Shown: in pieces, positions 1 to 14,700 of the stretch | How the letters are laid out: every line of letters starts with the position of its first letter | How positions within the stretch are numbered: the stretch's first letter is position 1 | From: a virus | Lineage: Duplodnaviria; Heunggongvirae; Uroviricota; Caudoviricetes | Length of the DNA stretch: 14,700 nt | Virus record (IMG/VR): IMGVR_UViG_2529293147_000010 | Reading direction: 5' to 3' (one strand) | The notes under the pieces: generated by a model | What the model was told of the DNA's origin: nothing | Seen by the model: the letters and a program-made list of their open reading frames with translations, nothing else | Database searches by the model: none | Made by a program: the position numbers and the translations under genes

Positions 1-124
1 ACAACAACTGCACCGGATATTGAATGGCCAACAGTACCCATTATCGAATAGTGCATTACGAACTGCAGGATATTATATGGGATAATATTCTGCAGTTTAT
101 TGGGGCTGTATTTTAAAAAGGTGT

Positions 125-1456
125 TTATTTTGAGTGAATTATCACCTTGTTTTTTCCGGTTCTTTTGGCTTGATATAACGCTTTATCGGCATTGACTAAC
201 ATTTCAGATGGGCTGAGATTATTCTCTTTTGAAGTAAAGCAACCAATACTGACAGTTATTTTCTCAGGTCCATGCGATAATAATTTTTCCGAGCATTGCT
301 CTTCAATGTTTTTTCTGATTCGCTCTGCAATTGATAGCAAGAGCTTTTGAGTATTACCTTTAATGATAATACCGAACTCCTCACCGCCTAAGCGCCCTAA
401 TATATCCTCTTTCCTGATGGATTTTTTTATTATTCTGGTAACCATTACTATGACTTGATCACCCATATGATGCCCCCATTTGTCATTGATGCTTTTGAAA
501 CTGTCAATATCTAACATTATTACTGAGAAATCATGGTGTTTTGATATATTCTTCAATGAGTCAATAAAGTATCTTCTATTGTATGTATTCGTTAGTGGAT
601 CATGAATTGCCATATGATTAGCATGATTTAATTTCCTGAAAATATAATACATGAGTGTTGAAATGATATAAATCATTGATATCAATTCAAGAAATTTTGT
701 CATGTACCATGCAGGATGGGATTTATCAATAAAATACAATAAAATTAGATTATTGCATACTGACACTATACTAATAAGTATTATACACAACCATATTTTT
801 GAGTAATTACGTATGCTGATGCATGAGCTGATAAGTAATACAAGCCAAAATACTGATATTATTTTGGTGTACACGATATTCCACGTCGGCAAATGACGAT
901 TCAGCGAGTATTGTATAATATTAAGACTATATTTTATATTGTCACTGCTTAGATTTTTTGCTACAAACGGAGTAATAAAAAGAATTAATATTGACAAAAC
1001 AACAATTATTATGTTTCTTTTATCTTCTAAAACACTTTTATTTTTAACATTGGTGGAATAAACAGCCAGAAAGATTATAGATATAAAGCTGAACTGACGG
1101 AATAGATAATATATTGCGATATCATTTGATTTCTGATAGATTGTAGATAAATCGTTACCTAACGGAGATAAAGAAATAATAGCCACTTCTAATAAATAAT
1201 ACGTGTTGCTCAAAAACGCGAATGAAAGAATTAAGAGATAACTTTGTCTCTGATTAGAAACATAGTAAAGCAATAGAAAAATAAAAATCATCAGGTTTAT
1301 GAAAAAAAGCCCAATAATGAAAACACTATAACTTATTTGTGTTGTTTGTGTTATGTATATTCCATTATTTGCATGCAGTAACAAAAATATAATAGAGATG
1401 CATGAAAATAAAAAGATGAAGATTTTTATTTTTATAGGTACCTGGTTGATAATCAT
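125..1456 (-). CDS. Membrane-anchored diguanylate cyclase: N-terminal multi-helix hydrophobic sensor region plus C-terminal GGDEF domain (DgcT/YcdT-like architecture)
   Basis: 443-aa ORF. First ~280 aa are successive hydrophobic helices. C-terminal domain has DPLTNTYNRRYF, an RKED motif (RxxD I-site-like) just upstream of the catalytic GGEEF, and KALYQAKRTGKN. SD-like AGGTG 6 nt upstream of the ATG at 1456. Very AT-rich compared with neighbouring prophage genes. Confidence 0.85.
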   Translation of the reverse strand: MIINQVPIKIKIFIFLFSCISIIFLLLHANNGIYITQTTQISYSVFIIGLFFINLMIFIFLLLYYVSNQRQSYLLILSFAFLSNTYYLLEVAIISLSPLGNDLSTIYQKSNDIAIYYLFRQFSFISIIFLAVYSTNVKNKSVLEDKRNIIIVVLSILILFITPFVAKNLSSDNIKYSLNIIQYSLNRHLPTWNIVYTKIISVFWLVLLISSCISIRNYSKIWLCIILISIVSVCNNLILLYFIDKSHPAWYMTKFLELISMIYIISTLMYYIFRKLNHANHMAIHDPLTNTYNRRYFIDSLKNISKHHDFSVIMLDIDSFKSINDKWGHHMGDQVIVMVTRIIKKSIRKEDILGRLGGEEFGIIIKGNTQKLLLSIAERIRKNIEEQCSEKLLSHGPEKITVSIGCFTSKENNLSPSEMLVNADKALYQAKRTGKNKVIIHSK

Positions 1457-1716
1457 GTACGCACCTGAGAATGATATATATATAATATGTATCGCTACAA
1501 ATAACGATAATTTCTTACTGGTGATAGTATACTATTATTCTGGTTAATCGCTGTCAAATTGATGATTTTGGTTAGTATTGCAATAGCGAAGAGTTTGATC
1601 CGGTAAGACTGGCTAGGCAAGGCTATACCAAAAAATCAGTGTAGGTTCAGAAAACGATGCACCATACAATCATCAATAATTTCAAATTGTCCATTGTGCA
1701 TAAATCATAAAGAAAA

Positions 1717-1749
1717 CCGCAGCACGTCGTATGCAAGAACGTGCTGCGG
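1717..1749. terminator. Perfect 10-bp stem hairpin (CCGCAGCACG / CGTGCTGCGG, 13-nt loop) with A-run on the left and T-rich tract on the right; candidate bidirectional intrinsic terminator
   Basis: Inverted repeat read directly from the sequence. On the minus strand the stem is followed by TTTTCTTTAT, as expected for a terminator about 300 nt downstream of int. It separates the prophage from the GGDEF gene promoter region. Confidence 0.45.
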
Positions 1750-1790
1750 TTGGTTTGACTTTGATTGAGACGTTTTGGAATTTTTTTTTG

Positions 1791-1842
1791 TGGCAAAAAT
1801 GGGGCAAAACGCTGCAAAAGGGGCAAAAAAGGGGCAAAAAAA
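1791..1842. repeat. Five tandem copies of (G)GGGCAAAA(A) at about 10-11 bp spacing; candidate integrase arm-type binding sites of attL
   Basis: TGGCAAAAA, GGGGCAAAA, GCTGCAAAA, GGGGCAAAAAA, GGGGCAAAAAAA in direct tandem, preceded by a T10 run. An inverted copy TTTTTGCCC lies at 1931-1939. Located between the terminator hairpin and the 3' end of int. Confidence 0.45.
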
Positions 1843-2016
1843 GAGTGGATTATCGTAGTTTATTGTTCTCGCTGATGATGTTTAACACATTGAAAAATAA
1901 GTAAAACACTTATGAGTCAGATAGTTGTGATTTTTGCCCTTACTTGTTCAGGTTGTATTGTTCTTTCTTTGTAATTTGTTGATTTTCTTGCATTATTTCA
2001 GTTCTCTGGTACTAAA

Positions 2017-2036
2017 TGGGGCAAATTGGGGGCAAA
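2017..2036. repeat. Two further direct copies of the GGGGCAAA motif immediately next to the int stop codon
   Basis: TGGGGCAAA and GGGGGCAAA at 2017-2036; same motif family as the 1791-1842 cluster. Confidence 0.4.
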
Positions 2037-2044
2037 CTTTGCAA

Positions 2045-3280
2045 CTACGATAACCGCGCATTCAACATGGCTATCTGTTCGTCGTTCATGTCATCAATCC
2101 ACATACCGTAAATTTCATACACCATCTGCGCAGTTTCATGCCCCATTTGGCTGGCTATAAATGCCGGGTTCGCTCCTGCCGTCAACAGCCAGCAGGCAAA
2201 AGTATGCCGCGTATGGTACGGATTACGGCGGCGAATACCAGCACGTTTTACTGCTGCATTCCACCTTGCCCCCAAACTGCTTACCGAGTAATAAGGTTTT
2301 TGTTTTCCGTTACACACCCTGGGCATGAAAACAAAATGCAGTTTTTGCTTTTCGGTTCTGCCGTACTCCCGATGATAAAAGGGGATTTCGCTTTTGCGAT
2401 GATGCCCGGTCAGTTTGTATTGCTCCTTCAGTGCTTCAAGAGCAGGCTGCAGTAGTGTTACTGTTCGGATCCCGGCATTTGTTTTTGGGGGACCGAACAT
2501 ATCAAGTATCGTCAGGTTTCTTCTGACATTCACTATTCCCTTTTCGAGATCCACATCCTCCCACGCCAGAGCTGCCAGTTCCCCGTGACGAAGTCCTGAG
2601 TAAACGGCAAATTTCCACAAGTTCTGGCTCTGTCCTTTTTCACTTTCCATTAATGCATTGAATTCTGTTTTAGATAACGGATCAGGCTTTATTCTGTTTC
2701 GCTGTAATTTTTTTACTCCTTCAAATGGTTTGGTTGATATAAATCCCGACTGATACGCAAAACGCAACAGCGAACAGAGCAGGGCGATATAGTTATCAAC
2801 TGTGCGCACGGTTCTTCCTTTTTTGTTGGATCTTGGATTATCCAGGTAAAGCGTTTCTCCATGCAGCAGTTCATTCCGGTAGTTTAAGATATCGCTATAA
2901 CGAATATGTGATATCGGGGTACTTTCACAAATTATTATTCTGAGTGTTTTTAATTGTGATTTCGTTTTCTTCATTGTGTTTGTTGTTAACTCTGTCTCTT
3001 TAATTTTTGTCCAGATATCACAAAGCTCTCCGAACGTTTTTATGACTCTCGTTGTCACCATTTTTGCCCCAGTGCTGGACTGGGGAAAACGTCTTAAATA
3101 CTCAAATTCACCGGAGTTTATTTCATGAACTATCAGCGCTCTTAAATTTCCGGCCTTTTTAATATTACTGTTTGTAATCTCCCAGCCTTTTAATGTTTCC
3201 CGACATCGTTTTCCTCGAAACATGAACCAGATGCGAATGTATCTACCTCTAATCTCGACACCTGTTGGTAATTTAGACAT
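2045..3280 (-). CDS. intR: Tyrosine site-specific integrase (Rac prophage IntR type)
   Basis: 411-aa ORF beginning MSKLPTGVEIRGRYIRIWF. C-terminal catalytic region has the R...HxxR...Y pattern (NPYHTRHTFACWLL, then MVYEIY). Length and N-terminus match my recollection of K-12 IntR. The xis gene ends 2 nt upstream of its start. Confidence 0.93.
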   Translation of the reverse strand: MSKLPTGVEIRGRYIRIWFMFRGKRCRETLKGWEITNSNIKKAGNLRALIVHEINSGEFEYLRRFPQSSTGAKMVTTRVIKTFGELCDIWTKIKETELTTNTMKKTKSQLKTLRIIICESTPISHIRYSDILNYRNELLHGETLYLDNPRSNKKGRTVRTVDNYIALLCSLLRFAYQSGFISTKPFEGVKKLQRNRIKPDPLSKTEFNALMESEKGQSQNLWKFAVYSGLRHGELAALAWEDVDLEKGIVNVRRNLTILDMFGPPKTNAGIRTVTLLQPALEALKEQYKLTGHHRKSEIPFYHREYGRTEKQKLHFVFMPRVCNGKQKPYYSVSSLGARWNAAVKRAGIRRRNPYHTRHTFACWLLTAGANPAFIASQMGHETAQMVYEIYGMWIDDMNDEQIAMLNARLS

Positions 3281-3281
3281 A

Positions 3282-3497
3282 TCATGAGTCTTTGATAAAC
3301 TGATTTATCTTTGGATAGTTGTACCAGATAATCCCTCGTTTGCTGTCTGGCTTACCTAAAGGAGATACTCGTTTGAAGTGGAAGCCCTCCACCCAACAGT
3401 TCTGGCGGTATGCTTCAATTTGTCTGGCCCCCAGACCAGTGCGAAGCATCAGGCCGTATTCAACCATCCACTCTTCATTAAAGATTACTTGTGCCAT
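3282..3497 (-). CDS. xisR: Excisionase-like small DNA-binding protein (Rac XisR/YdaQ)
   Basis: 71 aa from the internal ATG at 3497 ([16 protein letters not shown]...), with GAGGGG SD about 5 nt upstream. The ORF track's longer 79-aa version starts at a TTG. Classic xis-int arrangement. Confidence 0.85.
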
Positions 3498-3575
3498 CGC
3501 ATCCCCTCTGGCAGGCGCCAATGTTAGACTGAAATTGACGCCCGATGTTGATTATTAATAATCAGCTATGAAGTT

Positions 3576-3785
3576 TTAATTTGAATACAATGCAATTCTC
3601 GAGGACTGAAGTTTCTCGCAATTAAAATTTATCAGTTTTACTTTCTGCTCTCTGGAAACGCCTGCTTCTTTTTTACCTGAGAGCATTTTTTCGCATTCTG
3701 ATTTCGTTAGTTTAGATTTTGAATATCTTGTCCAGTTAGTAGGAGTGCCACCTTCCTTTTCAATAGTGGCGGTAATTTTATACAT
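3576..3785 (-). CDS. rcbA: Rac prophage small protein RcbA/YdaC (reported to reduce chromosome breaks)
   Basis: 69 aa from the ATG at 3785 (MYKITATIEKEGG...), GGAGG SD 6 nt upstream. The track's 93-aa version uses an upstream start. Overlaps the ralR stop by 8 nt. Confidence 0.85.
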   Translation of the reverse strand: MYKITATIEKEGGTPTNWTRYSKSKLTKSECEKMLSGKKEAGVSREQKVKLINFNCEKLQSSRIALYSN

Positions 3786-3972
3786 GAACACCTCCATTAT
3801 TATTTCCAGTGGTTCGTTTATTCCATCTTTCGAGTGCTTCTTTTTCACTTCCACCATAACCGGTTCGGGATTCGCATCCGTTACACTTCGCTCGGTAATA
3901 TCCTGAAATGGCTTTCACCGTTACTGATGGACAACCACAAAATGGACATGGTTTAACATTGTCATATCTCAT
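3778..3972 (-). CDS. ralR: RalR/Lar: restriction-alleviation protein, reported DNase toxin of a type I toxin-antitoxin pair
   Basis: 64 aa from the ATG at 3972 (MRYDNVKPCPFCGCPS...CNGCESRT). Two CxxC pairs suggest a zinc ribbon. Length matches K-12 RalR; SD is weak. Confidence 0.85.
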   Translation of the reverse strand: MRYDNVKPCPFCGCPSVTVKAISGYYRAKCNGCESRTGYGGSEKEALERWNKRTTGNNNGGVHV

Positions 3973-4028
3973 AATTTTTCTCATAAAAAATATTTCAAGT
4001 TGGCGGTGCATTACACCGCCAGGCTGAA

Positions 4029-4838
4029 TTATTCCTCTGAATTATCGATTACACTGTATTCCCCGGTTAATACAGAGGAATCTGCAGGATCGATTGTCAG
4101 TGGTTCCTTTTCATCCATTGATACTGCACGCTGGATCTCAATTGATACGGGCAAATATTTGAACAGGCGACGAATAGCCGTTTTCTTTGCCATTTCTTCC
4201 CAGTGAGTTACCCACGGCCCGTTATTACCAGCTTTACTCAGGCTGCGCACCAGCTCAATCTGTTTGCGCGTCATAACTTCAAACTGAGTACCTCCGTCTT
4301 TCAGTCTTGCGACAGCATAGACGTGGGTAACCGGGGCATCTTCGTTTTCTCCCGGGCGGGGTATTAACTTTTCATCAAGGCCAAATTCGAAGCTAAACTC
4401 GTCACCTTCACGGACAACACGGGCTGACAGGCTGGCGATTTGACCAGAACGGCGAGCCAGATCAATCATGCCGCGATAGCCAATGATTAGCTGAACGTTC
4501 TTTTTACCGCTCTTTTCGTTTTTATTACCAAAAGGCAGTAAATATGCATGACCGAGGGCGCTACCTGGCTCAAGTCCGAGCTGTGAACACTGTACGATCG
4601 CACTGACAAAACTCATAGTGTCACAGTTTCCTAACGCCGGAACTTTACGAATTTCTGTGGTGGCGATACGGATCATACGTTCAGCCGTCATATGGCGTGG
4701 AAGAGCTGCTGCCAGTTGCTCTTTCATTGATGGCTGGTTAATAAAACTAATCACGTCGCTATTTTTAACTGCTGCTGGGGCACGATTTCCCTGAGTTTTT
4801 TGCAGATCGGCTTTTGCGATTGGTGGTTGCTTAGTCAT
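4029..4838 (-). CDS. recT: RecT single-strand annealing recombinase
   Basis: 269 aa from the ATG at 4838 ([25 protein letters not shown]...), AAGGA SD 8 nt upstream. The track's 288-aa version uses an upstream start inside recE. Overlaps the recE stop by 8 nt, as in K-12. Confidence 0.95.
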
Positions 4839-7431
4839 TTGCATATTCCTTAGCCCAGCGGGGCAGTGATAATGTCTTAATAGCTGGCCATTCATCGGTA
4901 TTCAGGCAGTCAGACAGGGTTCGCAGATTGCGGTGATATTCCTGTTGACCTGCCAGTTTTGCTTCTTCGCCCATCATGAAAATTTCAACCGGATAACGTC
5001 CGCATTCAATAGTTGTGCTGGCAACCAGAAAAACGAAAGTTGGCTGCACTCCAAACTGTGCTTCATAACCGTCACTGTAGAATGCATCCTGAACGTGATA
5101 GCGGTAGTCGTAATAAGCGGTTTTGAATCGTTGAATATCCGCCGTAGTTTTCACGTCCATGATCCAGTGAAATTCAGGGATAATTTTGTCCGGACGGCAC
5201 CGACACAAAATTCCTGTTTCAGGATCTTCCCAGTAAATTGATGATTCAGCGTGTCCGGCGCTTTCAACAAGCCATTGCCCCAGCGGCAAAGCCATAACGC
5301 TTTGATACATGAGTTCAATTTTCCGGCCTTCTTCCGCAGTGATAACCGTTTTTCCTGTGCTTGCGCATTCCATCAGAAACGCTTTCTCTTCTTCTTTTCC
5401 GGCGTTTGTACGGCGGTTAAATTCAGGTGCTACGATAAAGCGGTTACTGAATTCTTCCGGTTCAAGTACCCGGCAGTGGAAAGCAGTTCCTAAATCGAGC
5501 GTTTTTGTCTTTGTGGTGTCCACGGGGGCATTTTTACGCCACAAATATAGTGCCGGAGTATCAGCAATGTCATCGAGCTGAGACTTACTGATACCGGGAC
5601 CCGCGTGGTAATTCTCATTCGAAATTCCGTAATAAATACCTGGCTCTATGTCTTCTACGATTACGGGATCTGCGACTTCGCCAGTTTCATCACTGCAATC
5701 GCGATGCGGATCGCTGCCAGCATTCTCATTGTGCGGATGTTCAGCGCCTTCCATTTCCTCCGGATCATTTTCCTTAGCTTCAACCTGACTCTCTTCATCG
5801 AATGTTTCCTGGTATGTTGCGTCGCCCATCACCGCACCACAGTCAGGGCAGTTATCCCCGCCAGTCTGGCCGCAGGCATTGCAGGCTATTTCCGGTTCCT
5901 GTTGCACTACTGGCTCAGGTTGATTCATATCCGGGCTGGTTTTTTCCGTTTCTGGCTGGTTCTGGTACACACAATCGCGAGTCTGGATCCCCTTTACCCA
6001 TTTCGGATCGTTCGGGTCGCTAATTCCGTCAACAAATTCATCACGTGATGCAGCAAGCAATTTATCGGCATCGACAGGATTTTTTGATGGAATGTTTTTC
6101 CGGGCTTTATGGAGTTCTGCCCGCAGTTCCTGATATTTCGCATCAACAGAATTTACCTGTGACTGAGCATCCAGCGGCTGCGTGTCCTGATGATGTTCAG
6201 TTGCGTCCGGTTCCATTGTTTCAGCCTCTCCCTGTTCAACTGCCGTTGTTCCAGATGGTTGCGGTTTTTCTTCATCATCCTGTTTTCCTTCTTCTGTTAC
6301 TCGCTGCGGCATCGGGGCAGAGGAGCGACCGCAGGCAATATCCACGATTTCCGGATCAGGGTTGGCATGATCGGTTTCAGTCAGTACTTTGTTCAGATAT
6401 TCAGTGACGTGCGCGGGGATGACCTCGATCCCAATTGGTGCTTCTTTTACGGACGCAACCACGATGGCGCGGGAATAATCCAGCCCGCCAGGCATGGTGA
6501 TGAATTTGTCGCGGAAAACAGAAAAGGGCGGTTTATTTTCAGCGATAATTTCCTCAATGCGTTTAGCGTGTGCCGGATGAAGGTTATAGATGTCCAGATC
6601 CATTGAACGGGCCAGTACGCCAGTGGCTACGTCGCGCGCCAGTGACGTCAGATCGTGTACGAAACCTTCGCCGCGATCGGTGAGGTTTCCGCCGCCAGCA
6701 TTAGCACCGGAAGCCGTGCGAGTGATGTGTGAAACACGATTACCCTTCATCCACTCTTTTGTCAGCAGTCCTCGATCGGTGTAGTCAGCGTTCAGGTATG
6801 CTTCGAAAAAAGCAGTTATCAGTCCCAGGTTTGAATTACCAGGATTAGGGAAAACTTTGTCAGTGTCACGAACCAGTTTGTGGAGTTCGCGAATTTCCAG
6901 CGGGTCGAGCAGGCTGGTTTTGTGGGAAACAGCCAGGGCAGTAACAGCCGGTAGTTCTTCAGCCCGAGCAATGTGTAATGCCTGGAGTCCGTCGCGTGAA
7001 ACGTGCGTTACCGGTTTTTCGCTGCCGTGTTGAGCAAGCCAACGAATGGGCAGTTCCTGGCCAGAAATTGGGAGTAGCATATTCTCCTCAATCTCAGTCA
7101 TGTCTTCGCCGTTGACGTTGGTATTGCCTTGATAGTGAGCGTTGTCTGGTGCTGCTCCCGGTTTTAGTTCCCATGTCATGGAGTCTTTGCTGAGTTGATA
7201 GCGTTCACTCCAGGTAAAATCGATCTCACCTTCAGCGGGCAGGTCATTAACGACAGGAAAATTCGTGGCAACAGCTTTAAAATAGCTGCTCAGTTTTTTA
7301 CCTGACTTAACGATCAGGTAGTCCAGAGTGGCACAGGTCGATTCAAAATCGTTGCTTGCCCACAGGACGACGTCAGGTTCACCGGATGATTTTTTCGCTT
7401 TCCGTAACAGGAAGAGTGGTTTTGTGCTCAT
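4831..7431 (-). CDS. recE: RecE exonuclease VIII (5'-3' dsDNA exonuclease, partner of RecT)
   Basis: 866-aa ORF beginning [30 protein letters not shown]; length and sequence match my recollection of K-12 RecE. Long acidic central region with a C-x2-C-x9-C-x2-C motif. The C-terminal ~260 aa is the nuclease domain by established knowledge. Confidence 0.95.
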
Positions 7432-7502
7432 TGTTTTTTAACCTCAACTCAGATTAAAATTCGTTTTGTTCAGTGAATGATCTTGCCGGATACACACTGT
7501 TC

Positions 7503-7527
7503 ATAGCCTGCGCCATACGCAGGCTAT
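7503..7527. other. Perfect 10-bp inverted repeat hairpin (ATAGCCTGCG, loop CCATA, CGCAGGCTAT) right after the racC stop, between racC and recE
   Basis: Read directly from sequence. No T-run follows on the minus (operon) strand; a T-rich stretch follows on the plus strand. Confidence 0.35.
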
Positions 7528-7532
7528 TTCTT

Positions 7533-7808
7533 TCAGATTTCACCTTTTAATTTCATTGCAATTAGAGTTGCCAGAAATTCGGCTTTTTTTTCTGCGGGCA
7601 GATTCTTTCCGATATGCACCAGGCACATTTTTTTGACACCTTCATCAAGTGTTTTTACGTTGCCTGATGGACCATCGATATCAACCACAGTGAATGGGGT
7701 TTCTTTATTTTCTGTTTTAATTACGTAGCCAATGCGCTTTCCTTCCAGATTCACCTCGTGAACAATGTCATCGGTAGTTACAACAGTGGCTTCATAATTG
7801 GTAATCAT
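7533..7808 (-). CDS. racC: RacC (Rac prophage protein of unknown function)
   Basis: 91 aa from the ATG at 7808 (MITNYEATVVTTDDIVHEV...), GGAG SD upstream. The track's 107-aa version starts further upstream. Confidence 0.85.
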   Translation of the reverse strand: MITNYEATVVTTDDIVHEVNLEGKRIGYVIKTENKETPFTVVDIDGPSGNVKTLDEGVKKMCLVHIGKNLPAEKKAEFLATLIAMKLKGEI

Positions 7809-7882
7809 GTTTTTCTCCTTAATTAAGGTTGAGCGAATACCTGCCATTTCTGGCATAAATTCAGTTTCGAATAGTCAATTAA

Positions 7883-8053
7883 TTAAAGTTCATGTGCCAT
7901 CTGGTCTTTTTCGGCACAAGCTTCACTGCAATATTTTCTCGGTTCGTCTTTTGATAAAATCCCGTGCATGAAGTGAAGCATTCTTTCAATAGCTTTGCTT
8001 TCTTCAACGTCTTTTTTGCAAAGGTGGTAAGCACATTTTATTTTCTTAGTCAT
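7883..8053 (-). CDS. ydaE: YdaE small Cys-rich (zinc-binding type) protein
   Basis: Not in the ORF track (56 aa, below its length cutoff). I translated it by hand: [56 protein letters not shown]. Its ATG overlaps the kilR TGA by 1 nt. Two Cys pairs (C-x4-C, C-x3-C). Confidence 0.75.
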   Translation of the reverse strand: MTKKIKCAYHLCKKDVEESKAIERMLHFMHGILSKDEPRKYCSEACAEKDQMAHEL

Positions 8054-8274
8054 CACCATGACTCCGCCTTTACAGGTAAACCATCACGACCGAGGAAGAC
8101 TTTAATCATGCGGTCAGTAATGCATGTTTTTGTGGTCAGGTTACGAATATATAGTTTTCGCTTTTTAATATTGTTTGCCGAGGCAATATATGTCCGGCCT
8201 TCATGAAGAACATAATCGCCAGGAGTCACACACTGACGTGGTATTTCATCAGTTCCGAAGTGATGTGCAATCAT
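8053..8274 (-). CDS. kilR: KilR, FtsZ-targeting cell-division inhibitor (killing function of Rac)
   Basis: 73 aa from the ATG at 8274 ([21 protein letters not shown]...), GGAG SD 7 nt upstream. Matches K-12 KilR in length and sequence as I recall it. Confidence 0.85.
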
Positions 8275-8715
8275 AATTATCTCCATTTTTACAAATGAAC
8301 TTTGTTGATGCGGTGCCTGGTGCCTCCAGGTGACTGCAACCAGTTAACAATTACAGTCGGCTTTCCCACCCAAACCAATAAGGACTAACATGACTTTTAA
8401 CTGTGCCACGTGCGCTTAGCCGCATTCACCGCATCACAAAATTCACTTTAAAAAGGGCGGACATCAGCCGAACTTCAAGAAAAAAACTGATGCCGCCAGG
8501 ACTACACACAGCAATGTCGTTATTTACAACCGGAGGCGCACTCCCACCATTTAAATTTAACAGACAAGACCGACTCTTTATGGATATCGGAAATGCGCCT
8601 TCGTGTTGTGCCCGGTTTTATTTCACCACCTCCGGGCTTCGGTGGTCTCGGCTATACCCCTACAGCGAGAGCTTGTGTTAACATTTCAATACCCTTACAG
8701 TTGAGAGTTATTGAT

Positions 8716-9204
8716 ATGTTGGATGTATTTACTCCATTGTTGAAACTTTTTGCTAAGGAGCCACTCGAAAGACTTATGTATACGATTATCATTTTTGGTC
8801 TCACTCTCTGGCTGATACCGAAAGAGTTTACTGTCGCATTCAACGCTTATACTGAAATACCTTGGCTCTTTCAGATTATCGTTTTTGCCTTTTCTTTCGT
8901 GGTCGCCATTTCCTTCTCAAGATTGCGAGCACATATTCAAAAGCATTATTCATTACTACCAGAGCAACGAGTATTGCTTCGTTTATCTGAGAAAGAAATC
9001 GCTGTATTTAAAGATTTCCTTAAAACAGGAAATCTTATTATCACTTCTCCTTGCCGTAACCCGGTTATGAAAAAATTAGAACGGAAGGGCATCATTCAAC
9101 ATCAGAGTGATAGCGCAAACTGTTCTTATTATCTCGTCACCGAAAAATACTCCCATTTTATGAAGTTATTCTGGAACAGCAGGAGTAGACGTTTTAATCG
9201 TTAG
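8716..9204 (+). CDS. sieB: SieB superinfection exclusion protein B (membrane protein)
   Basis: 162 aa from the ATG at 8716 (MLDVFTPLLKLFAKEPLERLMYTIIIFGLTLWLIP...), with two hydrophobic helices. An in-frame ATG at 8593 would add 41 aa but has no convincing SD. Confidence 0.85.
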   Translation: MLDVFTPLLKLFAKEPLERLMYTIIIFGLTLWLIPKEFTVAFNAYTEIPWLFQIIVFAFSFVVAISFSRLRAHIQKHYSLLPEQRVLLRLSEKEIAVFKDFLKTGNLIITSPCRNPVMKKLERKGIIQHQSDSANCSYYLVTEKYSHFMKLFWNSRSRRFNR

Positions 9205-9356
9205 CTTACTGTGTGCTTCTTCAACCATCGGCGCGCACCAGTTTCGGTTTTAAATGTTTTGCTTTTGGTATACGTCATGGCAGTGAACGTTCCATCCTGG
9301 TTGGGGAACACGCCGCACACCAGGGATTCGTTGTTGCCGAGGTCGATTTTTTGCAT
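9201..9356 (-). CDS. ydaF: YdaF small Rac protein, function unknown
   Basis: Not in the ORF track (51 aa). Hand translation: MQKIDLGNNESLVCGVFPNQDGTFTAMTYTKSKTFKPKTGARRWLKKHTVS. Its stop overlaps the sieB stop on the opposite strand. Confidence 0.7.
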   Translation of the reverse strand: MQKIDLGNNESLVCGVFPNQDGTFTAMTYTKSKTFKTETGARRWLKKHTVS

Positions 9357-9366
9357 TTTGCGAATC

Positions 9367-9501
9367 TCACATCTTGTTGCTACGTATAGCGACTTCTGCC
9401 TGCCAGAGATCCCAGTCGTTGCTGCGTAAAGCCTGCACAGCCTGGTTGTAAGTGATACCGCAACAATCCATCAAATACTGAACTACTTCGTAATGCACCA
9501 T
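9367..9501 (-). CDS. ydaG: YdaG small Rac protein, function unknown; first gene of the leftward operon
   Basis: Not in the ORF track (44 aa). Hand translation: MVHYEVVQYLMDCCGITYNQAVQALRSNDWDLWQAEVAIRSNKM. Strong SD AAGGGGAGAG upstream of the ATG at 9501. Confidence 0.7.
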   Translation of the reverse strand: MVHYEVVQYLMDCCGITYNQAVQALRSNDWDLWQAEVAIRSNKM

Positions 9502-9670
9502 CTTATCTCTCCCCTTAACGCCGGGTGGCGGAACTAACTACTGCACTGCAAAATTTGAATCCCGCCGTCATGTTCATACGCCTCGGGCTGGCTACTTAAC
9601 CCCTTACCACTGCCTGGTAACTCGAAGTATTGCCCGGCGTTCTGTGGGGCGGGGGGGGTGGTATGCTGGA

Positions 9671-9716
9671 ACTATAGGTAATGCCTAATTGATTGTCAAT
9701 AGGCTATGCCTAATGT
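9671..9716 (-). promoter_or_regulatory. Leftward early promoter (pL analogue) with embedded repressor operator sites
   Basis: On the minus strand: TTGACA (9699-9694), 17-nt spacer, TATAGT (9676-9671). The operator half-site TTAGGC occurs upstream of -35 and inside the spacer. The 24-nt block CATTAGGCATAGCCTATTGACAAT is near-identical to the block in the racR-ydaS region. Confidence 0.55.
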
Positions 9717-9809
9717 TTTGAGCGTAACCTAATAGGTGATGGCGACAGCAGAAAGTGATGGGGGGGTTAAATAACGGAATCCAGGAGTTTTCCGTCAGAC
9801 CATATAAGT

Positions 9810-10286
9810 TTAAGTTCCAGTTTTTGTGATGTTCTGGCTTTTCCGTTCAGATTCTAGAGCTTTCAGATACTTACCCACTTTCATTTCCATCGCTGCTATA
9901 TAGGCGCGAACATCGTGGTCAACCCAATCTGGTTCTGTAGCATTTCCAGATAACAGGAAAGCTACAATCGCTCTTATTTCATCAGAGGCTGCTTGATAAA
10001 GGTTGTTTATATCTAAAATTTCACTTTTTGTATCTGAATTGGTGGGGGTTGGTATGGGGTATTCGTTAAGCCCCCAATGCTCTGGACCAACAACATCAGA
10101 AAAGAAACGCCATAATTCTGGAAGTTTATCTTTACTTATAGAGCCTTTCTTAATCCAGTCATAAATTGATGGTGGTTGGACTTTGAAGTGGCGTGCGACC
10201 TCCGCCTTTGATTTGACGGATCCCGATGCGATTTTTTTGTTAATGGCCTGCTCTATCGCTCGGCCTAAGTCTTTACCACTAAGCAT
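9810..10286 (-). CDS. racR: RacR, prophage immunity repressor (HTH DNA-binding protein)
   Basis: 158-aa ORF (MLSGKDLGRAIEQAINKKIASGSVKSKAEVARHFKVQPPSIYDWIKKG...) with an N-terminal HTH. AGGAGA SD about 10 nt upstream. Divergent from ydaS, in a cI/cro-like arrangement. Confidence 0.9.
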   Translation of the reverse strand: MLSGKDLGRAIEQAINKKIASGSVKSKAEVARHFKVQPPSIYDWIKKGSISKDKLPELWRFFSDVVGPEHWGLNEYPIPTPTNSDTKSEILDINNLYQAASDEIRAIVAFLLSGNATEPDWVDHDVRAYIAAMEMKVGKYLKALESERKSQNITKTGT

Positions 10287-10312
10287 TGCTTAATATTCTC
10301 CTATGCGCATTA

Positions 10313-10390
10313 CATTAGGCAATCCCTACCCTTACCGCATTAGGCACAGCCTATTGACAATTGCGTTAGGCGTCGCCTAATATTTCTGTG
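10313..10390 (+). promoter_or_regulatory. Rightward early promoter (pR analogue) plus operators in the racR-ydaS divergent region
   Basis: TTGACA (10354-10359), 18-nt spacer, TAATAT (10378-10383). A perfect 15-bp palindrome TTAGGCGTCGCCTAA (10366-10380) overlaps the spacer and -10. A 13/15 palindrome TTAGGCACAGCCTAT sits just upstream of -35, with a further TTAGGC half-site at 10315. GGAG SD 9 nt before the ydaS ATG. Confidence 0.6.
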
Positions 10391-10409
10391 TGTTTTTGGA
10401 GTTCATTCG

Positions 10410-10706
10410 ATGAAAAAAGAGAACTATTCATTCAAGCAAGCTTGTGCTGTTGTCGGTGGGCAATCAGCAATGGCTAGGCTTTTAGGTGTATCACCTCCAA
10501 GCGTAAATCAATGGATCAAAGGGGTACGTCAATTGCCTGCCGAGAGATGTCCAGCAATTGAACGTGCAACAAGAGGTGAGGTTCTGTGCGAAGAACTTCG
10601 TCCTGATATTGACTGGTCATATTTACGACGTTCGGCATGTTGTTCGCAGAATATGTCAGTGAAGCAACTAAATGACAGTAACAAATCCTCATTTGATCAT
10701 ACCTGA
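10410..10706 (+). CDS. ydaS: YdaS, Cro-like HTH regulator (toxic when derepressed, by published reports)
   Basis: 98-aa ORF with an HTH segment (QSAMARLLGVSPPSVNQWIKG); first gene downstream of the pR-like promoter. Confidence 0.9.
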   Translation: MKKENYSFKQACAVVGGQSAMARLLGVSPPSVNQWIKGVRQLPAERCPAIERATRGEVLCEELRPDIDWSYLRRSACCSQNMSVKQLNDSNKSSFDHT

Positions 10707-10728
10707 AACATCAAGAGGCAAATGATTC

Positions 10729-11151
10729 ATGAAAATCAAGCATGAGCACATCGAATCAGTGTTGTTAGCCCTGGCTGCTGAAAAAGGGCAGGCATGGGTA
10801 GCCAATGCCATTACTGAAGAATATCTGCGCCAGGGGGGCGGCGAATTGCCCCTGGTACCAGGCAAGGACTGGAACAATCAGCAGAATATCTATCACCGTT
10901 GGTTGAAAGGTGAAACGAAAGCGCAAAGGGAAAAAATTCAGAAACTGATCCCTGCGGTTCTGGCAATCCTTCCGCGCGAGCTGCGTCACCGACTCTGCAT
11001 CTTCGATACCCTGGAACGCCGTGCATTACTGGCGGCGCAGGAAGCGTTAAGTACGGCAATTGATGCGCATGATGATGCAGTCCAGGCCGTTTACCGGAAA
11101 GCGCATTTCAGCGGCGGCGGGTCTTCCGACGATTCTGTCATTGTTCATTAA
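10729..11151 (+). CDS. ydaT: YdaT (cII-like regulator / toxic partner of YdaS, by published reports)
   Basis: 140-aa ORF (MKIKHEHIESVLLALAAEKGQAWVANAITEEYLRQ...), AAGAGG SD about 10 nt upstream; sits in the cII-equivalent position. Confidence 0.9.
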   Translation: MKIKHEHIESVLLALAAEKGQAWVANAITEEYLRQGGGELPLVPGKDWNNQQNIYHRWLKGETKAQREKIQKLIPAVLAILPRELRHRLCIFDTLERRALLAAQEALSTAIDAHDDAVQAVYRKAHFSGGGSSDDSVIVH

Positions 11152-11163
11152 GCAAAAGTTTCC

Positions 11164-12021
11164 ATGCTGTTTGTGCTTATTCTAAGCAACCGGGCAGCAT
11201 CATACGGGGCAATTATGGCCGCATTACCATACATGCAACTGTACATAGCTGATTACCTGGCTGACACCATGCATTTGTCAGCAGAGGAGCATGGTGCGTA
11301 TTTGTTGCTGATGTTCAATTACTGGCAAACAGGAAAGCCAATACCTAAAAACAGGCTGGCAAAAATTGCCCGTCTGACTAACGAGCGATGGGCTGATGTT
11401 GAACCATCCTTGCAGGAGTTTTTTTGCGATAACGGCGAGGAATGGGTGCATCTTCGGATTGAGGAAGATCTGGCATCAGTCAGGGAAAAATTAACCAAAA
11501 AATCAGCCGCAGGAAAAGCATCTGTTCAGGCCAGAAGAAGCAGAAAGGAAGCAGATGTTCAAACAAAACAAGAGAGAAATTTAACAGGTGTTCAAACAGA
11601 TGTTGAAGTGGTGTTTGAACATGATGTCAACACAAAGGCAACTAATAAAGATACAGATAAAGATCTAAAAAAAGATCCCCCCCTAAATCCCCCCCGGGGG
11701 AATCGAGGTGTCAAAAAGTTTGACCCTCTGGATATTGCTTTGCCGAACTGGATTTCTGTCTCGCTTTGGCGTGAGTGGGTTGAATTTCGCCAGGCATTGC
11801 GTAAACCGATTCGAACGGAGCAGGGTGCTAACGGGGCGATACGGGAGCTGGAAAAATTCCGCCAGCAGGGTTTTTCACCTGAGCAGGTGATTCGACACAG
11901 CATCGCCAATGAATACCAGGGCTTGTTCGCGCCAAAAGGTGTTCGACCTGAGACGTTACTCCGACAGGTTAACACCGTCTCGTTACCGGATAGTGCGATC
12001 CCGCCAGGCTTCAGGGGGTAA
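11164..12021 (+). CDS. ydaU: YdaU, replication-module protein (DUF1376-type, O-like position)
   Basis: 285-aa ORF directly upstream of the DnaC-like loader. The first ATG lacks a clear SD; a downstream ATG at about 11215 is an alternative start. Confidence 0.85.
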   Translation: MLFVLILSNRAASYGAIMAALPYMQLYIADYLADTMHLSAEEHGAYLLLMFNYWQTGKPIPKNRLAKIARLTNERWADVEPSLQEFFCDNGEEWVHLRIEEDLASVREKLTKKSAAGKASVQARRSRKEADVQTKQERNLTGVQTDVEVVFEHDVNTKATNKDTDKDLKKDPPLNPPRGNRGVKKFDPLDIALPNWISVSLWREWVEFRQALRKPIRTEQGANGAIRELEKFRQQGFSPEQVIRHSIANEYQGLFAPKGVRPETLLRQVNTVSLPDSAIPPGFRG

Positions 12022-12027
12022 CTGACC

Positions 12028-12774
12028 ATGAAAAATATTGCGGCAGGCGGCATTCTTGAACGTATCCGTAGACTGGCCCCGCCACATGTAACCGCCCCAT
12101 TCAAAACGGTAGCGGAGTGGCGCGAGTGGCAACTTTCCGAAGGCCAGAAACGTTGTGAGGAGATCAACCGTCAGAATCGTCAGTTGCGGGTGGAAAAAAT
12201 TCTGAATCGCTCTGGCATCCAGCCATTGCACCGCAAATGCTCGTTTTCGAATTACCAGGTGCAGAACGAAGGGCAGCGATACGCGTTGAGTCAGGCGAAA
12301 TCCATCGCTGATGAACTGATGACCGGGTGTACAAATTTTGCGTTCAGCGGAAAACCTGGTACTGGGAAGAACCACTTAGCGGCAGCTATCGGGAATCACC
12401 TGCTGAAAGACGGTCAGACAGTGATTGTGGTTACCGTGGCTGATGTTATGAGTGCCCTGCACGCCAGCTATGACGATGGGCAGTCAGGCGAAAAATTTTT
12501 GCGGGAACTGTGCGAAGTGGATCTGCTGGTTCTTGATGAAATTGGCATTCAGCGCGAGACGAAAAACGAGCAGGTGGTACTGCACCAGATTGTTGATCGC
12601 CGGACAGCGTCGATGCGCAGCGTGGGGATGCTGACAAACCTGAACTATGAGGCCATGAAAACATTGCTCGGCGAGCGGATTATGGATCGCATGACCATGA
12701 ACGGCGGGCGATGGGTGAATTTTAACTGGGAGAGCTGGCGTCCGAATGTCGTCCAGCCAGGAATTGCGAAGTAA
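12028..12774 (+). CDS. ydaV: YdaV, DnaC/IstB-like AAA+ helicase loader (replication protein P analogue)
   Basis: 248-aa ORF with Walker [14 protein letters not shown] and Walker [19 protein letters not shown] about 9 nt upstream. Confidence 0.9.
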
Positions 12775-12796
12775 TTTTTACCGGGAGAAAAATTTA

Positions 12797-13558
12797 ATGG
12801 AGACTGTTTTTGACGCACTGAAAGCAATGGGAAAAGCCACATCCATAGAACTTGCTGCGCGACTTGATATCAGTCGTGAAGAAGTGCTGAACGAACTATG
12901 GGAACTGAAAAAGGCTGGTTTTGTTGATAAAAGCGCGTACACCTGGCGTGTGGCTGATAACAACGTTCAGCAGGAACAGCCAGCGCAGGCAGAACTGCCG
13001 GAAGAAACCACCACAGCAACAGTAGCGAAAATCTCAGAGTGCGATTTAACCGCGACGATTGAACAACGCGGACCACAAACGGCTGATGAGTTGGCTACAT
13101 TGTTCGGTACCACATCACGCAAAGTGGCTTCAACGCTGGCAATGGCTATCAGCAAAGGTCGTCTGATTCGCATTAATCAGAACGGTAAATTTCGTTACTG
13201 CATACCGGGTGATAATTTACCAGCAGAGCCGAAAGTTGAATCGGTAGCGGAAACCGATGGTAAAGCCTTTCCTCAGCCAGCAGGTGTTGCGTTACCAGTA
13301 CAGGAAGCTGCAACACAGGAAGATATTAAAACAGAAACTGTGGCTGATATTGTGCAGTCGTTGCCATCGTTTACTGAAACGCGAGCGGATGACCTGGTTT
13401 TACCATCGCTGCATATGGCAAACCGCGAATTGCGTCGGGCGAAAAGTCATGTCCAGAAGTGGGAGCGAGTCTGCGCCGCGCTGCGGGAGCTGAACAAGCA
13501 CCGGGATATTGTTCGACAGATTACGGATTCTTCCCGCCGTATTGTATCGGAAAAGTGA
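12797..13558 (+). CDS. ydaW: YdaW-like protein, apparently full-length; contains two winged-helix-like segments
   Basis: 253 aa from the ATG at 12797 ([52 protein letters not shown]...), GGGAG SD 9 nt upstream. The track's 270-aa version starts inside ydaV. The ydaW gene symbol is by position after ydaV and is not verified. Confidence 0.78.
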
Positions 13559-13573
13559 TTGCCGGAGGCGCTT

Positions 13574-13903
13574 ATGGCAAAAGTATTTACACAAGAAGGG
13601 CGGGAAAAAATTAAAGGGCAGGTTGTTGAACTCGTGCGCCAGAGTGGGCGCGAGACGTTACGACAACTGGAAGCTAAGACAGGTGCGACAAGATATCTGA
13701 TGAACCTTCTTGCCAGAGAATTGGTTGCGAGCGGTGATGTATACAACTCTGGTTACGGGTTATTTCCCTCAGAACAGGTTCGTAAAGACTGGCAAAACGC
13801 CCGCAAAAAACTATCAAGGGCAAAGGTGAAGAAACCGGTTGTGGTTGATCCTGACCTTATCTGGTCATTACCTGACGGAGAAATCCGTCGCCTTAGTCTT
13901 TGA
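13574..13903 (+). CDS. Hypothetical 109-aa protein with a winged-helix-like segment; no counterpart I recognise in K-12 Rac
   Basis: ATG at 13574 with GGAGG SD 5 nt upstream (MAKVFTQEGREKIKGQVVELVRQSGRETLRQLEAKTGATRYLMNLLARELVASGDVY...). Translationally close-coupled to the ydaW-like gene. Confidence 0.65.
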   Translation: MAKVFTQEGREKIKGQVVELVRQSGRETLRQLEAKTGATRYLMNLLARELVASGDVYNSGYGLFPSEQVRKDWQNARKKLSRAKVKKPVVVDPDLIWSLPDGEIRRLSL

Positions 13904-13938
13904 TAATAGGTTTATAATGTTGAAAAAGAGTCTAATAG

Positions 13939-13969
13939 TTGACATTGTATGAAATATGATTGTTATATA
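13939..13969 (+). promoter_or_regulatory. Strong sigma70-like promoter in an AT-rich island
   Basis: TTGACA at 13939-13944; TG-extended TATATA at 13961-13969 (spacer about 19 nt). A perfect TATAAT also at 13913-13918. AAGG SD precedes the ATG at 14005. Confidence 0.4.
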
Positions 13970-14004
13970 AAATGATTTTTTTGGATACTGTTTAAGGTAA
14001 ACAA

Positions 14005-14157
14005 ATGAAACCAGAATACTTAAGAAAAATAGAATCATTGCAACGTGAGGTTGATGATTTCCATCCAGTGCTAAGAGCGCTTCTACCACGTTTGCCGACT
14101 GTTACACATGTTGAATATAAGCAAGGACCATCAGAAAAAGGTGCTGATTTTGGGTGA
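14005..14157 (+). pseudogene. AT-rich orphan ORF cut off by IS1: 50 codons of an unknown gene, with the stop codon supplied by the IS1 terminal inverted repeat
   Basis: MKPEYLRKIESLQREVDDFHPVLRALLPRLPTVTHVEYKQGPSEKGADFG, then TGA lying inside the IS1 end sequence GGTGATGCTGCC. Has its own promoter and SD. I do not recognise the product. Confidence 0.4.
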
Positions 14158-14207
14158 TGCTGCCAACTTACTGATTTAGTGTATGATGGTGTTTTTGAGG
14201 TGCTCCA

Positions 14208-14483
14208 GTGGCTTCTGTTTCTATCAGCTGTCCCTCCTGTTCAGCTACTGACGGGGTGGTGCGTAACGGCAAAAGCACTGCCGGACATCAGCGCTATCTC
14301 TGCTCTCACTGCCGTAAAACATGGCAACTGCAGTTCACTTACACCGCTTCTCAACCCGGTACGCACCAGAAAATTATTGATATGGCCATGAATGGCGTTG
14401 GATGCCGGGCAACTGCACGCATTATGGGCGTTAGCCTCAACACGATTTTACGTCACTTAAAAAACTCAGGCCGCAGTCGGTAA
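14208..14483 (+). CDS. insA: IS1 InsA (transposition inhibitor / N-terminal part of the InsAB' transposase)
   Basis: 91 aa with a GTG start ([40 protein letters not shown]...), zinc-finger CxxC pairs and an HTH. Confidence 0.9.
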
Positions 14484-14700
14484 CCTCGCGCATACAGCCG
14501 GGCAGTGACGTCATCGTCTGCGCGGAAATGGACGAACAGTGGGGCTATGTCGGGGCTAAATCGCGCCAGCGCTGGCTGTTTTACGCGTATGACAGTCTCC
14601 GGAAGACGGTTGTTGCGCACGTATTCGGTGAACGCACTATGGCGACGCTGGGGCGTCTTATGAGCCTGCTGTCACCCTTTGACGTGGTGATATGGATGAC
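14465..14700 (+). CDS. insB: IS1 InsB' reading frame (-1 relative to insA), 5' part only; expressed as the InsAB' fusion by programmed -1 frameshift
   Basis: A6C slippery motif at 14459-14465 inside TTAAAAAACTC. The downstream -1 frame translates to [37 protein letters not shown]...DVVIWM, open to the window end. Confidence 0.8.

Follow-up and report, generated by a model that had tools for sequence, protein, structure and literature searches.

The diguanylate cyclase gene dgcX as cargo beside a Rac-type attachment site in attP form

The gene at the left end of the window, i.e. the entire stretch of 14,700 nucleotides of caudoviral DNA analysed here, is in all probability dgcX, a known accessory diguanylate cyclase gene of Escherichia coli, lodged, apparently as a moron, in the slot that separates tfa, the gene for tail-fibre assembly, from the phage attachment site, with the window presenting that site in its attP form (Table 1). 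Because the encoded protein is 100% identical to the published DgcX of strain SE11, the gene counts as already described; it has been studied experimentally, and nothing reported here alters what is known of the enzyme. The new elements are modest and comprise the attP junction of a rare Rac-type carrier, the position of dgcX inside the att core, the sharing of its slot with unrelated cargo and the frequencies of these arrangements.

Table 1. Features of the dgcX-attP-intR region of the window
Feature	Position	Strand	Remarks
3' end of tfa/tfaR (tail-fibre assembly)	1..51	+	Translation ends ...TVPIIE, stop; left border of cargo slot
Hairpin between convergent tfa and dgcX	60..98	.	On + strand, stem then UUUAUU
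dgcX	125..1456	-	443 aa, ATG start; MASE4-GGDEF diguanylate cyclase
Sigma-70-like promoter candidate	1529..1557	-	TTGACA-17-TAGTAT, 10/12; ~75-100 nt before dgcX ATG
Hairpin closing the cargo slot	1713..1753	-	Stem then UUUUCUUUAUG
P arm of Rac-type attP	1754..1943	.	Five tandem arm-type repeats (GGGGCAAAA-like) at 1786-1849; inverted copy at 1931-1939
Attachment core/overlap	1944..1986	.	43 bp common to attL-side and attR-side matches
P' arm	1987..2044	.	Two further GGGGCAAA repeats, 2014-2036, directly before the int stop codon
intR-type tyrosine integrase	2045..3280	-	Pfam Arm-DNA-bind_2 (E 4e-26) and Phage_integrase (E 1.8e-22)
Excisionase, xisR/ydaQ-like	3282..3521	-	Pfam DUF1233 putative excisionase, E 8.9e-21; YdaQ/xisR in matching records

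The gene, its product and its distribution

The open reading frame is intact, with exactly the limits and strand given in Table 1, and its product is a MASE4-GGDEF enzyme in which both domains and the motifs of the catalytic site and the I-site are intact. Pfam assigns residues 40-274 of the product to MASE4 (E 9.3e-36; score 123.8 bits, cut-off 28.4), the model (PF17158) being matched from position 4 to position 237 of its 239, i.e. at full length and above the gathering threshold, and residues 283-437 to GGDEF (E 3.5e-44; score 150.9 bits, cut-off 23.8). Both matches are far above chance, while the NCBIfam models gave generic GGDEF-domain matches, none of which reached an equivalog cut-off. 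When membrane segments were called with a 19-residue Kyte-Doolittle window, seven hydrophobic segments rose above the threshold and an eighth (approximately residues 72-95) fell just under it. The A-site is intact, with GGEEF at residues 357-361, and five residues upstream of it the I-site is present as RKED (RxxD) at 348-351. Alignment with PleD (1w25) showed the DID, N, H and D residues to be conserved together with GGEEF and RxxD, the aligned blocks being LDIDSFKSINDKWGHHMGDQV against IDIDFFKKINDTFGHDIGDEV, GGEEF against GGEEF and YQAKRTGKN against YQAKASGRN; the last basic residue is K in DgcX in place of R. The GC content of the gene is 29.7% (GC3 31%) and that of the remaining window (2045-14700) is 46%, a difference of about 17 points. 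The original prediction, made from the letters of the window, had described a low-GC GGDEF protein with multiple membrane segments and intact GGEEF and RxxD motifs, all of which is borne out; the question that it raised as to whether the N-terminal region is of a MASE type is answered by MASE4.

Over all 443 of its 443 residues the product is identical to WP_000586336.1 of E. coli SE11, the sole copy of DgcX with which it was compared, and in SE11 the gene is located between tfaR and uspF-ompN, in agreement with the locus reported by Richter et al. 2014 (PMC4287979). These authors named dgcX as an extra GGDEF gene of certain E. coli strains, namely the O104:H4 outbreak strain, EAEC 55989, HUSEC041, ETEC H10407 and E24377A and the commensal SE11, and described its product as having intact A- and I-sites and an eight-helix N-terminal domain common to YcdT and YeaI. 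In lacZ fusions its expression was the highest among the E. coli diguanylate cyclase genes tested, the strong expression of dgcX::lacZ being both RpoD- and RpoS-dependent. They also found that it invariably adjoins lambdoid prophage DNA, mostly at lambda attB and in SE11 to the left of uspF-ompN, and proposed that it 'hitchhikes' from strain to strain by specialised transduction (PMC4287979). Cimdins et al. 2023 (PMC10459773), who term DgcX a MASE4-GGDEF protein, added argW-dsdC as a third site and reported that overexpression, compared with the catalytic mutants E359A/E360A, results in more cellulose while CsgD is not raised; the numbering of these mutants is consistent with GGEEF at 357-361 in the protein studied here. 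A literature search for other prophage- or moron-borne diguanylate cyclases of E. coli gave nothing relevant.

The module consisting of tfa, dgcX and the hairpin beyond it was detected in 767 of 5,426 complete E. coli genomes (14%), lying at the lambda attB/ybhB junction in 586 of these and at a Rac-type junction in 8, and the exact DgcX sequence is recorded on 713 contigs. Viral contigs provide further sites, near zinT and near a sitD-like permease gene, and an allele of 92.7% identity occurs in the KpLE1 remnant at argW-dsdC beside a 96-bp fragment of tfa. Several genomes have retained an intact dgcX even though the adjoining prophage is without tail genes or has a tfa fragment only, and in a few IS1 is found in or beside the dgcX region. 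In every context examined the gene adjoins a tail-fibre assembly gene or its remnant. Searches of 50,697 deposited phage records at both the DNA and protein level recovered neither dgcX nor a full-length MASE4-GGDEF relative; the only GGDEF-domain matches in deposited phage genomes were below 40% identity. Matches on plasmids proved not to be dgcX: records that are mislabelled or large contained dgcT and cdgI, which are chromosomal paralogues, and there was also a MASE4-GGDEF gene of about 33% identity. This distribution agrees with the original prediction in three respects. The proposal of horizontally acquired c-di-GMP cargo at a prophage junction fits a low-GC prophage gene of 14% of the genomes; a conserved core gene unrelated to prophage carriage, which had been named as the outcome that would overturn that proposal, is not what was found; and the strain-specific diguanylate cyclases that it mentioned from prophage loci of pathogenic E. 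coli correspond to DgcX itself (PMC4287979).

The cargo slot and its borders

To the left of dgcX, the gene matching positions 1-51 is annotated as 'tail fiber assembly protein' or tfaR in SE11 and NCTC11121, and Caudo_TAP Pfam domains are present in the tfa product in all full-length contexts. The hairpin in the interval between the two convergent genes is stable on both strands, with a folding energy of -26.6 kcal/mol (z -5.7) on the plus strand and of -16.0 kcal/mol (z -5.9) on the minus strand; it looks like the terminator of tfa and probably ends dgcX transcripts as well. Upstream of dgcX lies an AT-rich region (1457-1712) that holds the top-scoring promoter-like site of positions 1-2100, though the total of such sites in this segment is no higher than in shuffled sequence. 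On the strength of its consensus match we regard this site as a candidate for the dgcX promoter. The hairpin on the right has a perfect 13-bp stem (1715-1751; dG -25.8 kcal/mol, z -4.5) and looks like a terminator of leftward transcription, i.e. in the direction of int. A generic terminator scan of positions 1-2100 returned none, both hairpins falling outside its loop and T-run rules, and both were confirmed by folding. Identification of the right-hand hairpin with a lambda-type sib was considered and rejected, as the HK97 record puts sib approximately 60 nt closer to the core; in HK97 the hairpin is a conserved element separate from, and beside, the annotated sib.

Comparison of different prophages indicated that this hairpin is the right end of a dgcX module common to different phages. 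The SE11-type and lambda-attB-type loci have in common a segment of 98.4% identity that stops exactly at the hairpin (1753), while the tail genes to the left of this segment are only about 92-93% identical. In a lysogen at lambda attB (L002) the lambda core GCTTTTTTATACTAA is found 641 bp past the dgcX start codon, and the DNA between dgcX and this core corresponds to the P arm found in the attP of lambda, HK106 and HK97. In the Rac prophage of K-12 the dgcX slot, between tfaR and the same hairpin, is occupied by pinR-ynaE-ynaM, and in HK97, which has the order tfa-hairpin-sib-core-int, it is empty. These alignments place dgcX inside the att boundaries of the phage, in a defined tfa-attP cargo slot, and speak against host DNA that was picked up. 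Upon integration the slot becomes the attR end and is far from int, so that nearness of dgcX to int arises only in a circular or tandem state. With its promoter and terminators as predicted above, dgcX has the anatomy of a moron in a lambdoid-phage cargo slot: it is placed between the tfa-side hairpin and attP, its GC content is deviant, it is flanked by hairpins and it is absent from K-12 Rac and HK97. As for a promoter of its own, the window supplies a consensus match and the literature strong independent expression (PMC4287979).

A different origin of the arrangement is implied by the specialised transduction proposed in 2014 (PMC4287979), according to which dgcX would be host DNA from beside an attachment site, carried along through aberrant excision and not part of the phage genome proper. 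The invariable location of dgcX at the extreme end of a prophage and its GC content of 29.7%, which is unlike that of the phage, are in keeping with such an origin. Yet in both att contexts dgcX is inside the core with a phage P arm intervening, and the P arm from hairpin to core is of the lambda type in one (344 bp, L002) and of the Rac type in the other (190 bp, the window). Moreover, this 1.75-kb module is found at no fewer than five chromosomal sites with the same hairpin as its end, and in other phages the very slot is empty or filled with different cargo. We therefore consider it very unlikely that dgcX is transduced host DNA. Instead, because the module from the 3' end of tfa through dgcX to the hairpin is common to phages with different integration modules, recombination within the conserved flanks most likely carried it from one phage to another. 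Such an exchange would explain the observed pattern better than specialised transduction does; an ancient pick-up of the gene from a host may be conceived of, while its present-day spread needs no aberrant excision.

The attachment site and the state of the phage DNA

Between the right-hand hairpin and intR, the GGGGCAAA arm repeats flank the core on both sides (1786-1849 and, inverted, 1931-1939 on one; 2014-2036 on the other) and are presumably bound by IntR. The core itself falls within the 17 codons at the 5' end of ttcA, the ATG of which is at 1993 on the minus strand; the frame reads MQENQQITKKEQYNLNK and then reaches a stop, and beyond codon 17 the sequence runs into the phage P arm, not into the body of ttcA. 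Matches to ordinary Rac-type attL junctions (ttcA-intR) start at 1944, those to the attR side of the SE11/D6 prophage (tfaR-dgcX-...-uspF) end at 1986, and the Rac-SA53 phage record has 'attP' annotated at the equivalent of 1944-1969 of the window. The P arm shares 96% identity with the attR side of K-12 Rac, and in eight genomes, SE11 and D6 among them, it runs on into dgcX without interruption; thousands of Rac-type attL junctions have the P' arm joined in this way to intR. The left flank (1-1986) thus corresponds to the attR-side end of the SE11/D6 prophage and the right flank (1944 on) to the attL side of the Rac type. As phage DNA is present on both flanks, we interpret P-core-P' as attP and not as attL; the site between dgcX and intR has the make-up of a complete Rac-type attP, which may be competent for recombination. 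Thus, dgcX is next to int because the window displays the arrangement of joined ends, not on account of a new site of insertion.

This anatomy bears directly on the setting envisaged in the original prediction, in which dgcX abuts attL and is separated from the prophage by a hairpin and a cluster of repeats. The hairpin (1715-1751) and the repeats (1786-1849) are indeed there, but the repeats flank the core on both sides, the ttcA frame stops after 17 codons and the flank consists of the Rac P arm, phage cargo and tfa, so that the boundary is not an attL. Nor is ttcA, named there as the neighbour of intR in K-12, wholly missing, its first 17 codons being present and its body not. The alternative offered at the time was that a Rac-like prophage occupies another place in this chromosome, where dgcX would be the resident neighbour on the attL side. 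In its favour, the body of ttcA does not come after intR as it does in K-12; the other evidence speaks against it: the core is derived from ttcA, the P arm to its left has arm-type repeats and closely resembles the K-12 Rac attR side, and dgcX is followed by the phage gene tfa, not by chromosomal genes. A different insertion site is accordingly refuted by the att anatomy, and we hold it to be extremely improbable.

Records matching the integrase gene annotate it as intR, and the genes of the window follow the vegetative order of early regions of the Rac type, with int, xis, recT, recE, sieB, an ORF in the position of the repressor (158 aa, minus strand, without a Pfam match), ydaS/ydaT and replication genes in succession. 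An IS1 starts at 14153. The window would hence represent either phage DNA in an excised or circular state or the point at which two Rac-type prophages, inserted in tandem at ttcA, meet; the IS1 mildly favours a chromosomal, possibly decaying, copy over a free phage. That tandem Rac-type prophages occur is evident from the finished chromosome of Jnd12, which contains a tail end-hairpin-attP-intR junction with pinR-ydfK-ynaM replacing dgcX. Contiguity of dgcX with intR was found in none of the 5,426 complete E. coli genomes, which were searched with both 1-3400 and 1400-2400 of the window. One IMG/VR contig has positions 1-3663 of the window as a contiguous match of 99.9% identity; it is 4,373 bp long and comes from the draft assembly of an isolate. 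A scan with the attP sequence gave matches on six contigs each from the viral and the metagenome sets, with lengths reaching 346 kb; among these attP-bearing contigs dgcX is present on one short viral contig derived from an isolate, and the metagenome contigs hold cargo other than dgcX.

These results also need to be weighed against the possibility that the adjacency of dgcX and intR was created in assembly, with the attR and attL ends of a single integrated Rac-type prophage having been joined through the 43-bp core. Such an artefact would account for the lack of the dgcX-attP-intR junction in complete genomes and for the fact that each half separately matches an ordinary attR or attL junction, and the sole other example, being a small draft-assembly contig, could itself have been misjoined through the core. 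On the other hand, P-core-P' is just what excision or tandem integration is expected to give, a sister phage has such a junction in the finished Jnd12 chromosome, the attP junction recurs on the viral and metagenome contigs mentioned above, and the window extends unbroken for 12.7 kb past it. On balance, a misjoin seems unlikely to us. We give somewhat less than even odds to a further reading, namely that the window derives from a dgcX-carrying Rac-type phage in attP form that is still excising or integrating in tandem, with dgcX as ordinary cargo. [quoted passage not shown]

Expected role and comparison with known systems

In GGDEF enzymes of the PleD type two GGDEF domains bring together two GTP molecules to form c-di-GMP, and the product inhibits the enzyme allosterically upon binding at the RxxD site. 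By analogy, the GGDEF domain of DgcX would condense two GTP into c-di-GMP at GGEEF under the control of the N-terminal MASE4 membrane domain of approximately eight helices, and c-di-GMP bound at the RxxD I-site would inhibit it. The gene would be a self-contained unit with a promoter region of its own (1457-1712), flanked by two hairpins, of which the one at 1713-1753 may insulate it from transcription in the int direction and from flanking transcription. Its own promoter region, its low GC content and the hairpins on both sides suggest that dgcX could be expressed from a repressed prophage. In a lysogen DgcX might then raise c-di-GMP and with it the output of cellulose and biofilm, which would amount to lysogenic conversion. 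Joining of this module to a Rac-type attP-intR-xisR-recTE early region would yield the phage configuration seen in the window. As a counterpoint to a benefit for the lysogen, deletion of dgcX in strain Fec101 had a minor effect only, changing the rdar morphotype slightly (PMC10459773). DgcX has been proposed to contribute to the strongly adherent, biofilm-forming phenotype of the O104:H4 strain of the 2011 outbreak, and because of this proposed role the mobility of dgcX is of some epidemiological relevance.

With respect to the DgcX proteins of O104:H4, EAEC, ETEC and SE11, the one in the window is the same as the SE11 copy in all residues and is alike in its MASE4-GGDEF architecture and in the spacing of GGEEF and RxxD. 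Like the published loci it is situated at the end of a lambdoid prophage, with a P arm and core of the Rac/uspF-side type as in SE11; it differs in that a complete attP joins dgcX to intR and not to uspF, an arrangement that those papers do not describe. The two-domain MASE4-GGDEF architecture is also common to DgcT (YcdT) and CdgI (YeaI) of K-12, to each of which DgcX is 38% identical over almost the full length, including both MASE4 and GGDEF. However, the genes for DgcT and CdgI are core or chromosomal genes whereas dgcX is phage-borne; the A-site of CdgI is degenerate (LEGEVF in the alignment) where DgcX has GGEEF; and dgcT is weakly expressed while dgcX was the strongest diguanylate cyclase gene tested (PMC4287979).

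As a cargo gene, dgcX resembles the other occupants of the b-region or tfa-attP interval of lambdoid phages, such as pinR-ynaE-ynaM of K-12 Rac and the morons of the HK97/HK022 type, in its position after tfa and before the hairpin and attP, as well as in its deviant GC content, its own promoter region and its flanking hairpins. It stands apart in that it codes for a signalling enzyme, the other cargo of the slot being a recombinase, a cold-shock-like protein or an exclusion gene. The attachment site conforms to the Rac system, with its intR/xisR pair, an attB in the 5' end of ttcA and a ttcC remnant at attR: the core consists of 5' codons of ttcA, the integrase and excisionase genes have approximately 96-99% DNA identity to records of Rac-type prophages, and the phage brings a substitute 5' end for ttcA. 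Whereas the Rac prophage of K-12 is represented by the attL and attR forms only, the window contains the recombined attP form.

Conserved hairpin beside the att arm

A hairpin of about 40 nt is nearly base-for-base identical across lambdoid phages with unrelated integrases, both of the Rac type and of the lambda/HK97 type. Its position is constant in the compared phages, with the end of the tail-fibre/cargo region on one side and an att arm on the other, and in HK97 it lies, itself without annotation, about 60 nt away from the annotated sib site. It appears to mark the boundary at which cargo modules recombine. RefSeq annotates across it a 57-aa 'hypothetical protein' (WP_001157925.1), with the same call recurring as ECSE_RS28780 in E. 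coli SE11 and MYL38_RS13105 in E. coli Jnd12. Over its whole length this reading frame coincides with the hairpin and with the P-arm cluster of arm-type repeats, so that in all likelihood no real gene is present.

Coordinates of the features discussed
Feature	Record	Position	Remark
Hairpin, window copy	window	1713-1753
Hairpin, HK97 copy	AF069529.1	20936-20983	locus L048, 2508-2548
Hairpin, K-12 Rac copy	L009	4001-4049
WP_001157925.1 call	window	1731-1904 (+)
ttcA 5' codons	window	1940-1993 (-)	MQENQQITKKEQYNLNK*
Ren-like exclusion gene	window	13559-13903
Truncated ORF	window	from 14006	downstream of Ren-like gene
IS1 left end	window	14153-14700	GGTGATGCTGCCAACTTACTGAT...; within AT-rich stretch
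InsA ORF of IS1	window	14208-14483
Plasmid MASE4-GGDEF-like gene	NZ_CP027448.1	74745-75866
Plasmid MASE4-GGDEF-like gene	CP056356.1	7893-9014
Plasmid MASE4-GGDEF-like gene	CP099011.1	39476-40597

The diguanylate cyclase gene dgcX at other loci

E. coli G3X16-2 (L011, NZ_CP038138.1 1483989-1497567) carries a divergent dgcX allele (protein WP_000586224.1), with 92.7% DNA identity to window 1-1580 and a different upstream region. It is located in a KpLE1/CPS-53 remnant, between dsdC/torI and intS, where it adjoins a 96-bp fragment of the tail-fibre assembly gene tfa, in agreement with the argW-dsdC site of strain Fec101 (PMC10459773). The dgcX module is also found in viral contigs at a zinT-adjacent chromosomal junction with a tRNA-like stretch (L015 1-2447), and at another junction adjoining a sitD-like metal-transporter permease gene (L016 1-877). 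The cassette is thus shared by phages with further kinds of integration module. Several intact copies stand beside prophages in which the tail genes are missing or tfa is reduced to a fragment of 31 aa (L032, L037, L039), and in a few genomes IS1 lies inside or adjoins the dgcX region (H177/H178, L023), which hints that dgcX is kept in some lineages and lost in others.

A different MASE4-GGDEF-like gene is encoded by E. coli plasmids of 147-174 kb; its product, annotated merely as a sensor-domain diguanylate cyclase, shows ~33% identity to DgcX across 85% of its length.

Rac-type elements and the 5' end of ttcA

At the right end of the window, the IS1 insertion at 14153 truncates the ORF starting at 14006, suggesting that this Rac-type element is a chromosomal copy, possibly decaying. 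The finished chromosome of E. coli Jnd12 contains two tandem Rac-type prophages (L029, NZ_CP095820.1 2654921-2673609), at whose junction the tail end tfa-pinR-ydfK-ynaM is followed by a complete attP and then by intR-xisR of the second copy. The window attP includes the ttcA start codon and first 17 codons followed by a stop; integration of the phage thus puts these codons in place of the host gene's own 5' end, and presumably replaces its promoter as well. In K-12 Rac the displaced ttcA fragment is the ttcC remnant, located at attR.
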